Of a stretch of DNA of 22,986 nucleotides, positions 1,580-21,753 are shown piece by piece. Made by a program: the position numbers and the translations under genes. Position 1 is the stretch's first letter. Every line of letters begins with the position of its first letter. The DNA comes from a virus. Taxonomy: Duplodnaviria; Heunggongvirae; Uroviricota; Caudoviricetes. The notes beneath the pieces were generated by a model. That model had not been told where the DNA came from and did not search any database. It worked only from the letters and a program-made list of their open reading frames with translations. The stretch lies in the IMG/VR virus record IMGVR_UViG_2519899565_000007. One strand, 5' to 3'.

Positions 1580-1646
1580 ATTACCTGAAAAACCACATAT
1601 GGATATATAACCCATAAATACGAACAGATATTACCTTTCAGGTGAT
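1580..1646. repeat. Copy 1 of a shared regulatory element: ATTACC-N5-AACCACATATG ... ACGNACA ... 17-bp palindrome ATTACCTTTCAGGTGAT (1630-1646)
   Basis: Direct comparison with 18509-18587: identical ATTACC, AACCACATATG and ATTACCTTTCAGGT blocks in the same order and orientation. Lies in the divergent region between the tailspike start and the plus-strand 85-aa gene. Confidence 0.7.
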
Positions 1647-1682
1647 TCGCAAAACGTGCTGGATAGCAAACAAATTATTTGA

Positions 1683-1702
1683 TACTGTATATTTATACAG
1701 TT
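1683..1702 (+). promoter_or_regulatory. LexA (SOS) box TACTGTATATTTATACAGTT, immediately after a -35-like TTGATA (1679-1684)
   Basis: CTGT-N8-ACAG with AT-rich centre; 18/20 match to the E. coli consensus TACTGTATATATATACAGTA. Arrangement resembles the recA promoter (TTGATA followed directly by the LexA box). The -10 is weak (TATTGC at 1702-1707). Sits 20 bp upstream of the ATG at 1722. Confidence 0.75.
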
Positions 1703-1721
1703 ATTGCATGGAGAAGATAAG

Positions 1722-1979
1722 ATGCAGCAGTATCACTATCCACTGGAAGACGGATTTACCGAAAGGATTCACACGCCGGGAGGCGTCAGGTCACTGGTGG
1801 AGGGATCGCACTTGATGAAATTACTCCGGGATCTCGATAAGGATGGATTTAATGTCGATGGCCCACTTGCCGAACTGACTGCACTGATTAACTACGTCAC
1901 CAGCTCACAGATGTCTATGCAGGATCTGCAAACACATCTCGACTATTGTGCCGAACAATTACGAAAACAAACCACATAA
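1722..1979 (+). CDS. Hypothetical 85-aa protein, putatively SOS-regulated; antisense to the structural operon
   Basis: ORF track 1704..1979 starts at TTG; in-frame ATG at 1722 has GGAG at 1710-1713. Soluble, no recognisable family. Confidence 0.55.
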   Translation: MQQYHYPLEDGFTERIHTPGGVRSLVEGSHLMKLLRDLDKDGFNVDGPLAELTALINYVTSSQMSMQDLQTHLDYCAEQLRKQTT

Positions 1980-2001
1980 AGAAAAGGCCGCGAAAGCGGC
2001 C
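1976..2001 (-). terminator. Intrinsic terminator (GGCCGC-GAAA-GCGGCC) with a T-tract on the minus strand
   Basis: 6-bp GC stem 1986-1991/1996-2001 with GAAA loop; minus-strand continuation TTTTCTTTAT (rc of 1976-1985). Follows the stop of the 98-aa membrane gene and sits at the convergent junction with the plus-strand 85-aa gene. Confidence 0.65.
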
Positions 2002-2002
2002 T

Positions 2003-2014
2003 GTGACATGTCAC
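2003..2014. repeat. 12-bp palindrome GTGACATGTCAC (copy a), overlapping the stop codon of the minus-strand gene 2011..2307
   Basis: Exact palindrome; the same 12-mer recurs at 21825-21836 and with one mismatch at 16521-16532 and 19560-19571. Confidence 0.7.
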
Positions 2015-2307
2015 GTCCCTTTTCTGAATGATAGCCATTCGAAAAATGATGACATTCCACCGCAGACAATAGCAAAGATGATCCCACCAAAGAAGAGAAG
2101 GCCAGCCTGCCACCACTCCCACCGCCATACATCCACAGCGCCAACCATACCAACAATCGCTCCAACAAATGGAATATAGCTCACGATGAAAGCAATGGGG
2201 GCTGCAATTATCCAGTGCAATCCCCACCATGATTCAAGCCCAGCCATAATTGCTGCCAACTGAAAAAGACCAACGACGATATAAACAATGAATCCTATAG
2301 CTTGCAT
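2011..2307 (-). CDS. Small hydrophobic membrane protein (98 aa, about 3 predicted TM segments)
   Basis: ATG at 2307 with AGGTGA 5 nt upstream; sequence dominated by hydrophobic stretches (FIVYIVVGLFQLAAIMAGL, IIAAPIAFIVSYIPFVGAIVGMVGAV, LLFFGGIIFAIVCGG). Confidence 0.6.
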   Translation of the reverse strand: MQAIGFIVYIVVGLFQLAAIMAGLESWWGLHWIIAAPIAFIVSYIPFVGAIVGMVGAVDVWRWEWWQAGLLFFGGIIFAIVCGGMSSFFEWLSFRKGT

Positions 2308-14552: not shown

Positions 14553-14572
14553 GTGGGTCTGTTACGACCCAC
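14553..14572 (-). promoter_or_regulatory. RNA stem-loop (GUGGGUC-N6-GACCCAC) between the major capsid gene and the next gene
   Basis: 7-bp perfect inverted repeat directly after the capsid stop; no U-tract, so more likely an mRNA stabiliser or processing site than a terminator. Confidence 0.4.
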
Positions 14573-18508: not shown

Positions 18509-18587
18509 ATTACCAATTTAACCACATATGATTTATTTATCGTAGATAGTTGACATTTAACGCACAAATTATTACCTTTCAGGTAAT
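18509..18587. repeat. Copy 2 of the shared regulatory element, with a 12-bp insertion carrying TTGACA (18550-18555); perfect 17-bp palindrome ATTACCTTTCAGGTAAT (18571-18587)
   Basis: See copy 1; lies between the minus-strand 68-aa/portal genes and the plus-strand tRNA unit. Confidence 0.7.
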
Positions 18588-18908: not shown

Positions 18909-18985
18909 GTGGCATTAGCTCAGTTGGACAGAGCAACCGCCTTCTAAGCGGTTGGTCGCAGGTTCGAATCCTGCATGCCACGCCA
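18909..18985 (+). tRNA. tRNA-Arg (anticodon UCU), argU-like, CCA encoded
   Basis: Hand-folded cloverleaf: acceptor GTGGCAT/ATGCCAC, U8-A9, D-arm GCTC-AGTTGGACA-GAGC, anticodon arm ACCGC-CTTCTAA-GCGGT (UCU at 18943-18945), T-arm GCAGG-TTCGAAT-CCTGC, discriminator G, CCA. D, anticodon and T arms match E. coli argU as recalled. Confidence 0.9.
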
Positions 18986-19100: not shown

Positions 19101-19116
19101 CTGTAAACCCGTACAG
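19101..19116 (+). promoter_or_regulatory. Weak LexA-like site CTGTAAACCCGTACAG (CTGT-N8-ACAG), between the two tandem terminators
   Basis: Correct half-site spacing but the centre is GC-containing and the flanks are non-consensus. Confidence 0.25.
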
Positions 19117-19183: not shown

Positions 19184-19555
19184 ATGAACGACCAGCAAAT
19201 CGAAAAAGAAATCGTTGAGAAAGGCAAAACGGCACCGCGCGTTACGCCAGACCATATCGAAGGCATTATTGCTCAGGAGGCATATTTCACAGCAGAAGAT
19301 GGTGCCTTTGGCAAAGCCATAAAAGCGAAACATACTGGCGGAGAGGTAAACTACCAGCCGCACGAATCACTTTCTCTGCTGACGTTCTGCGTCCTGGTGC
19401 TGCGCAACGGCTTCACCGTCACCGGAGAGAGTTCCTGTGCAAGTCCGGAAAATTTTGATGCAGAAATTGGTCGGAAGATTGCCCGGCAGAATGCTGTAAA
19501 CAAAATCTGGATGCTCGAAGGTTACTTGCTGAAGCAGAAGTTAAGCGAGCAATAA
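19184..19555 (+). CDS. Hypothetical 123-aa protein (moron), antisense to the structural operon
   Basis: ATG with AAGGTGAG SD; flanked by intrinsic terminators on both sides; no family recognised by eye. Confidence 0.6.
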   Translation: MNDQQIEKEIVEKGKTAPRVTPDHIEGIIAQEAYFTAEDGAFGKAIKAKHTGGEVNYQPHESLSLLTFCVLVLRNGFTVTGESSCASPENFDAEIGRKIARQNAVNKIWMLEGYLLKQKLSEQ

Positions 19556-21121: not shown

Positions 21122-21714
21122 TGATTGCCATCCTGACGTTCTTTCAGTCTCTTCCTGGCTGCCGCTATGCGATCAGCAATTGTCACATTCACATTAACAT
21201 CCAGGCGTTCTTTGAATGCGTTGACGTCGACGTGCTTACCAATCAGTTCGAGGTTCTTCACCTTGTCAGGCCATTTAATTTTTTTGAGGATTGTCTCTAT
21301 CGAATCCTCGTTCATGTTCATGATGGTCGATGACAGATCAAAGCCACTAAGCGTAGTGCGCCAGATTTTCGGCCACTCACGGATTGGTTTAAGGCTCCCA
21401 TCGTCGTTGAGGATATCGATCACGTCCATCTGGTCGATCTCCACCAGGCGCATGAGAACGTAATCAGCACTGACGCGCATTCGTTTGTTGCGCTCCTCCA
21501 TCAACTCGGCAATCCGTTTTTGAATGCGTTCATCGCGCATCATGACACTGGCTTTAACTGCCGCTGTATTTGGGGAGAATCCTGCGTTAATCGCTGCCTG
21601 AGTCTGGTTTTCAGGCGTTTTGATGTATGACTGGCAATAAGCCTCCTGCATTGCTGTTAGTGGCTTAAATTGCGTTGATTTGCGTTTATAGGTTTTAGGT
21701 TCAGCAGGCATCAT
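21118..21714 (-). CDS. Terminase small subunit (P27-like family), about 198 aa
   Basis: Immediately upstream of and coupled to the large terminase; motifs ...AINAGFSPNTAAVKAS... and ...LELIGKH... typical of phage small terminases as recalled. ORF-track start 21792 is TTG; tandem ATGs at 21714/21711 follow GGTGG. Confidence 0.75.
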   Translation of the reverse strand: MMPAEPKTYKRKSTQFKPLTAMQEAYCQSYIKTPENQTQAAINAGFSPNTAAVKASVMMRDERIQKRIAELMEERNKRMRVSADYVLMRLVEIDQMDVIDILNDDGSLKPIREWPKIWRTTLSGFDLSSTIMNMNEDSIETILKKIKWPDKVKNLELIGKHVDVNAFKERLDVNVNVTIADRIAAARKRLKERQDGNQ

Positions 21715-21721
21715 AACCACC

Positions 21722-21753
21722 GTGGTAATAGTTACCGTTGTGGTAATAGTACC
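21722..21753. repeat. Tandem imperfect direct repeat GTGGTAATAGTTACC / GTGGTAATAGT-ACC just upstream of the small-terminase start
   Basis: Two ~15-bp units separated by GTT; each contains GGTAA-N-TTACC-like half-sites related to the ATTACC/GGTAAT half-sites of the 17-bp palindrome. Confidence 0.55.

Follow-up and report, generated by a model that had tools for sequence, protein, structure and literature searches.

The closest described counterpart of the locus analysed here is the induction switch of the Salmonella phage SPC32H. In Kim & Ryu 2013 (J Virol 87:11775), the repressor of that phage, Rep, is reportedly left uncleaved in the SOS response and is inactivated by the antirepressor Ant, the ant gene being repressed by LexA. 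The sources for the SPC32H Ant/Rep switch are Kim & Ryu 2013 and Kim et al. 2016, with structures deposited as PDB 5D4Z and 5D50. In a review, cleavage of LexA in these phages is described as leading to synthesis of Ant, which inhibits the repressor (PMC7380047). In two structural papers Ant is a tetramer; it engages a pair of Rep dimers and thereby breaks up the tetramer of Rep (PMC9638917, PMC9986798), and the second of these papers places the contact in the C-terminal domain of Rep. The mechanism considered below has therefore already been published for a sister phage, SPC32H, and is not new biology.

The window, that is, the whole stretch of DNA that was analysed, comprises 22,986 bases. 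Judged by sequence identity, it comes from an E. coli O26 prophage of the phiV10/epsilon15-like kind (Uetakevirus). Many E. coli O26 genomes contain a prophage to which its first 4 kb are 100% identical, and in strain E2865 the prophage matching the window sits between yfgI and guaA; most of the window is 97 to 98% identical to podoviruses of the phiV10 type (genus Uetakevirus, epsilon15-like). A preliminary description of this DNA had drawn attention to a small plus-strand ORF lying between a tailspike gene and genes for membrane and virion proteins. The flanking genes are as described, all of them on the minus strand, with the ORF on the plus strand; the features of the region are collected in Table 1. 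The stretch 2320-2493 carries no annotation in the RefSeq record of strain E2865. The hairpin at which the ORF converges with the virion-protein operon was called as a minus-strand terminator by a terminator scan. In that orientation it is followed by a T-run; on the plus strand no T-run directly follows. The equivalent site is annotated as a rho-independent terminator in the epsilon15 record. Elsewhere in the window, a tRNA-Arg gene (anticodon TCT; 18909-18985, plus strand) and a gene of the Phage_gp49_66 family (19184-19555, plus strand) separate portal from terminase genes within the minus-strand operon, and this stretch looks like an inserted moron region.

Table 1. Features of the ant locus and its surroundings, numbered by position in the window
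Feature	Position	Strand	Remarks
Tailspike gene	boundary at 1527	-	gene left of ant
Palindrome ATTACCTTTCAGGTGAT, candidate Rep operator	1630-1646		TTACC-N5-GGTRA; in the ant-tailspike intergenic region
Inferred -35 hexamer, TGGATA	1660-1665	+	within invariant TGCTGGATA; 17 bases upstream of TACTGT
Inferred extended -10, TG-n-TACTGT	1680-1688	+	TG and TACTGT invariant in 11 loci
LexA (SOS) box, TACTGTATATTTATACAGTT	1683-1702		18/20 consensus match; 20 bases upstream of ant ATG
Shine-Dalgarno sequence, GGAG	1710-1713	+	8 bases 5' of ATG; in conserved block GCATGGA
ant, probable 85-aa antirepressor gene	1722-1979 (stop included)	+	ATG 1722; TAA 1977-1979
GC-rich hairpin, GGCCGC-GAAA-GCGGCC	1985-2002		convergence point of ant (+) and virion-protein operon (-)
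98-aa membrane-protein gene	2011-2307	-	phrog_3075
Small ORF, up to 57 aa	2320-2493	-	position of 'putative integral membrane protein' genes SPC32H_019 and PhiV10p21
Virion-protein genes	right of the 2320-2493 ORF	-	824, 600 and 862 aa

The plus-strand ORF is very probably ant, an orthologue of the SPC32H gene, and would take part in the same LexA-Ant-Rep induction mechanism in a phiV10/epsilon15-like prophage. Over 84 of its 85 residues, the product shares 88% identity with SPC32H_020, a protein annotated as 'ant: anti-repressor protein'. A homology search against solved structures, which the preliminary description had proposed, returned chain E of PDB 5D50 ('Anti-repressor protein'; E = 1.3e-47) as the sole match of the ORF. 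In PHROGs the ORF falls into phrog_450, of unknown function (E = 1.4e-47), and residues 27-75 match the C-terminal end of PHROG 1760, 'anti-repressor'; neither Pfam nor NCBIfam holds a model matching Ant. The coding sequence is 60 to 100% identical at the protein level across eight genera, and the Shine-Dalgarno sequence and start codon are conserved in 11 loci. A search of genome contigs with the single Ant protein found five close relatives only. Among the roles suggested earlier for this gene, that of an SOS-derepressed antirepressor coupling induction to DNA damage is the one to which the identity with Ant, the shared synteny and a genus-wide LexA box point.

The LexA box departs from the consensus TACTGTATATATATACAGTA at positions 11 and 20, so direct reading of the sequence bears out the match at 18 of 20 positions claimed for it; TTGATA, read in the same way, occupies 1679-1684. 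It is the sole match in the 22,986 bases when up to three mismatches to the consensus are allowed, and a consensus LexA match was found in none of 100 dinucleotide-preserving shuffles of the window. Scoring by position-weight matrix had also been advised. The matrix, which draws on 27 E. coli SOS boxes of the Lewis 1994 and Fernandez de Henestrosa 2000 tables, is only approximate; with this approximate matrix the box scored 27.8 bits, above all 27 of the known E. coli sites compared, which ranged from 12.8 to 27.1 bits. The next best site in the window reached 9.8 bits, and the best over 200 shuffles 22.2 bits. Two matches to CTGT-N8-ACAG, at 14559 and 19101, reached no more than 9.3 bits, short of the score of any known SOS box, and probably arose by chance. 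The second of these is a 16-base match (19101-19116; 9.3 bits as a LexA site) that lies between the tRNA-Arg gene and the Phage_gp49_66 gene.

The preliminary description held that its reading depended on conservation of the site in related phages. In 12 of 12 orthologous loci from eight genera the box is present and keeps its spacing to the start codon; these are phages and prophages of Escherichia, Salmonella, Enterobacter, Klebsiella, Citrobacter, Erwinia, Pseudocitrobacter and Scandinavium. Its CTGT and ACAG arms are constant among the 12 loci, save for ATGT in the Klebsiella phages, and its centre differs from locus to locus (ATATTTAT, ATGTTTAT, ATAAGCAT, ACATATAT, ATAAACAT, ACATAAAT); constant arms around a varying centre are the pattern expected for a site constrained by LexA. 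A comparison of SPC32H with its sister isolate SPC32N over 6.25 kb showed two base differences, one of which changes ACAG to AAAG within the LexA box. In Kim & Ryu 2013, the box mutation of SPC32N reportedly results in constitutive Ant synthesis and in a lytic phage, and the difference between the two sequences agrees with that account.

Conservation of the promoter was assessed in the upstream regions of 11 orthologous loci. The invariant blocks are TGCTGGATA (1657-1665), TG (1680-1681), TACTGT (1683-1688), ATACAGT (1695-1701) and GCATGGA (1706-1712). The 13 to 14 bases 3' of TGGATA are freely variable, as for a promoter spacer; base 1679 is T or C, and base 1682 is A, C or T. This pattern favours an ant promoter in which TGGATA is the -35 hexamer and, after a spacer of 17 bases that ends with an extended -10 TG, TACTGT is the -10; TACTGT (1683-1688) doubles as the left arm of the LexA box. 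The two hexamers match the consensus at 7 of 12 positions, with the extended -10 TG in addition, and a scanner for canonical sigma-70 promoters reported none ahead of ant at its threshold. Under the TGGATA/TACTGT model, transcription would start near 1695 and give a leader of about 27 nt with the Shine-Dalgarno sequence inside it, so that an extra factor would be needless. The need for such a factor had been suspected earlier from a weak -10 and a very short leader; the conservation instead fits other hexamers and a leader of normal kind.

The recA-like layout put forward in the preliminary description (-35 TTGATA, box in the spacer, -10 TATTGC) was considered as the main promoter and rejected. 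Its bases are not conserved, SPC32H having CTGTTA and GTTTGC in their place; base 1679 and the -10 both vary, and the transcript would begin within or after the Shine-Dalgarno sequence. Because conservation favours TGGATA, TG and TACTGT, the recA-like layout is probably wrong. A third candidate, with a -10 TATATT (1688-1693) and a -35 TAGCAA, is an option that is less conserved than TGGATA/TACTGT. Under any of these promoter models, LexA bound to the box would cover core promoter elements.

Taken with the published switch, these features suggest the following course of induction. In the lysogen, host LexA bound at 1683-1702 would keep ant silent, because its site overlaps the putative -10 element and the region where transcription of ant would start. 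DNA damage would activate RecA and thereby cause LexA to cleave itself; once LexA was gone, ant would be transcribed, and Ant would bind the prophage's own Rep. Rep would then be released from its operators, and the lytic programme would begin. We infer LexA binding, SOS derepression and the interaction of Ant with Rep in this phage by analogy with the described system.

A homologue of Rep, WP_000836290 (194 aa), is encoded beyond the limits of the window by the E2865 prophage that is identical to it; there rep occupies 1205-1789 of the stretch compared and is transcribed divergently from a cro-like gene. The protein matches chain A of PDB 5D50 ('Repressor'; E = 4e-42) and is 42% identical to SPC32H Rep. 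A search for an S24 peptidase domain in WP_000836290 found none, and only HTH families were matched, in two HTH regions. Rep is 100% identical in phiV10 and most records of the phiV10 type and 98.5 to 99.5% identical in TL-2011b and HEMP4; in the phiV10-type phages it is accompanied by an Ant that is 97 to 100% identical. Homologues of Ant and Rep were found in essentially one common set of about 35 phage records. Since Rep and Ant are 42% and 88% identical, respectively, to the SPC32H proteins, the pairing of the two in this prophage is an extrapolation. The uneven divergence may mean that Ant recognises a conserved surface of Rep, or that immunity modules have been exchanged around a conserved ant. 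The corresponding identities to the Tyrion proteins are 86% for Ant and 78% for Rep, as against 88% and 42% for SPC32H.

The palindrome TTACC-N5-GGTAA is, from its sequence and distribution, probably the operator of Rep. The arms of the copy in the ant-tailspike intergenic region are invariant in 11 orthologous loci, and the equivalent site is annotated 'protein_bind repressor' in the epsilon15 record. If the palindrome is the operator, Rep would act at many dispersed sites, the ant-tailspike intergenic region included. The window contains four matches, against 0.43 expected (1630-1646, 18571-18587, 21713-21729 and 21731-21747); the sites recur at intergenic, promoter-like positions, and the pair at 21713-21747 is inside the small-terminase ORF. 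SPC32H has 18 where 0.58 would be expected (at 34390-34451 and elsewhere), and they cluster between rep and cro and also downstream of rep. In the prophage of strain E2865, where the motif likewise clusters between rep and cro, matches fall at 1087-1149 and 1847-1923 of the stretch compared.

Several conserved elements lie on the tailspike side of the same intergenic region. On the minus strand, the tailspike ribosome-binding site is closely preceded by a GC-rich conserved segment (1545-1564). This segment is unrelated to ant, and so are the other conserved blocks within about 1545-1601, the invariant ATTCTATTACC (1575-1585) and AACC..ATATG. TAGAAT (1580-1575, minus strand) could be the -10 element of the tailspike gene. 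An IHF site is annotated in the ant-tailspike region of the epsilon15 record.

Control of Ant by the SOS response would also be expected if its main target were something other than the co-resident Rep, with Ant acting in trans on the repressors of other prophages, in the manner of the Gifsy antirepressors, or having lost its partner after an exchange of the immunity module. Rep has diverged from its SPC32H counterpart far more than Ant has (42% against 88% identity), and LexA-controlled antirepressors that act in trans are documented in Salmonella (Lemire et al. 2011, PMC3121763). Throughout the genus, homologues of Ant and Rep nevertheless turn up together in the phage records, and a near-identical Rep (98.5 to 100%) is kept together with the same Ant (97 to 100%) in the phiV10-type phages, which argues for a working pair. 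Furthermore, the C-terminal part of Rep, which contacts Ant according to PMC9986798, retains conserved stretches in the alignment. We therefore regard a target other than Rep as quite improbable and retain the co-resident Rep as the partner of Ant. It is conceivable, if unlikely, that Ant has a broad specificity against heteroimmune Uetakevirus repressors and that the ant-tailspike region is a point of dual control by LexA and Rep. This idea derives from the conservation of Ant (88%) relative to Rep (42%) and from the presence of a Rep-operator-like palindrome upstream of the ant promoter; if it were true, cross-induction among related prophages would be expected.

The preliminary description had left room for two further products of the gene, a toxin or exclusion factor and an antisense RNA. 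An ORF that is small, host-controlled and opposed to its neighbours resembles a moron, and no Pfam or NCBIfam family gives it a name, as might be seen with an SOS-induced toxin, abortive-infection or superinfection-exclusion factor. The same ORF, however, is 88% identical to a protein that was crystallised with a phage repressor and named anti-repressor, it is matched by the PHROG 'anti-repressor' family, and neither a membrane segment nor a toxin family was detected in it at the level of Pfam and NCBIfam, so we give this explanation almost no credence. We think it equally hard to believe that the transcript is itself the product, causing SOS-induced antisense effects or interference on the virion-protein operon or the divergent tailspike promoter. 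The absence of a T-run on the plus strand at the hairpin where ant meets the minus-strand operon makes read-through conceivable, but it is the protein sequence that is conserved across the eight genera (60 to 100%), together with the Shine-Dalgarno sequence and the start codon, and the protein has a solved structure in complex with a repressor, its known partner. Antisense effects, if any, would be secondary to those of the antirepressor. We conclude that the ORF is best read as ant, a LexA-controlled antirepressor gene.

A survey of 5,426 complete E. coli genomes found the ant locus in 529, including those of EHEC strains of O26, O157 and O103, and ant would be the induction trigger of a prophage family found in about one tenth of such genomes. 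The switch would account for the DNA-damage response of a prophage whose repressor cannot cleave itself. The practical value of the finding is the annotation of ant: RefSeq gives its product as 'hypothetical protein' in all of the listed matches that carry a feature, and this label, combined with the absence of a Pfam or NCBIfam model, means that the switch is missed by automatic pipelines.

The locus can be compared with several known antirepressor systems. It resembles the immI region of P22 (mnt, arc, ant) in that a podovirus antirepressor gene adjoins the tailspike gene, far from the main immunity region. The Ant of P22, however, is a large protein under the control of the phage repressors Mnt and Arc, not of LexA. 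An Ant of the P22 type is ruled out here by the size of 85 aa, by the absence of Bro-N, ANT or KilA-C domains (Pfam), and by the absence of mnt- or arc-like ORFs near ant in the ORF list of the window. In Tyrion, ant is succeeded on its own strand by a second and larger 'anti-repressor' gene with a Bro-N domain, gp20 (2073-2777 of the stretch compared), whose product resembles Ant in its C-terminal third (38% identity over 78 aa, E = 2e-19). phiV10p23 (2071-2655 of the stretch compared) is a shortened copy of the Bro-N gene after ant. The window has no Bro-N gene at about 2003-2320, and the gene for the 98-aa membrane protein is found there instead.

A resemblance to Tum of coliphage 186 had been proposed, and it extends to the logic of the system, an antirepressor gene repressed by LexA and located far from the immunity region. 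It does not extend to kinship in sequence: as a candidate Tum homologue, Ant gave a BLASTP E value of 0.07 over 46 residues and no DinI family match in Pfam, whereas Tum has a DinI-like part. Phage 186 further differs in being a myovirus with an unrelated CI repressor. In the p95 promoter of 186, which drives tum, the annotated -10 is the first 6 bases of the LexA site (context gTGcTACTGTATGTTTATACAGTA), and the TG-n-TACTGT arrangement is common to the annotated p95 (gTGcTACTGT) and the inferred ant promoter. The LexA box of 186, TACTGTATGTTTATACAGTA, is identical to that of epsilon15. The Gifsy and Fels-2 prophages (Lemire et al. 2011, PMC3121763) offer another parallel: a small antirepressor made in the SOS response inactivates a repressor that cannot be cleaved, and induction proceeds via LexA rather than by RecA-mediated cleavage of the repressor. 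They are phages of other types, and the cross-talk between prophages that is known for Gifsy is conjectural for this Ant.

The closest correspondence is with the Ant/Rep/LexA switch of SPC32H. The present locus stands apart in its host, E. coli, in belonging to a phage species of the phiV10 type, in a Rep of only 42% identity, and in a box that lies nearer to the consensus (TACTGTATATTTATACAGTT) than that of SPC32H (TACTGTATGTTTATACAGTG). In other respects the two agree closely. The Ant proteins are orthologous (85 and 86 aa); the gene order is tailspike (minus), ant (plus), small membrane gene (minus) and 824-aa virion protein (minus) in both; the LexA box has the same offset from the start codon; and a Rep homologue without a peptidase domain is encoded in the same prophage. 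Every defining feature of the SPC32H switch that could be tested was found in this prophage.
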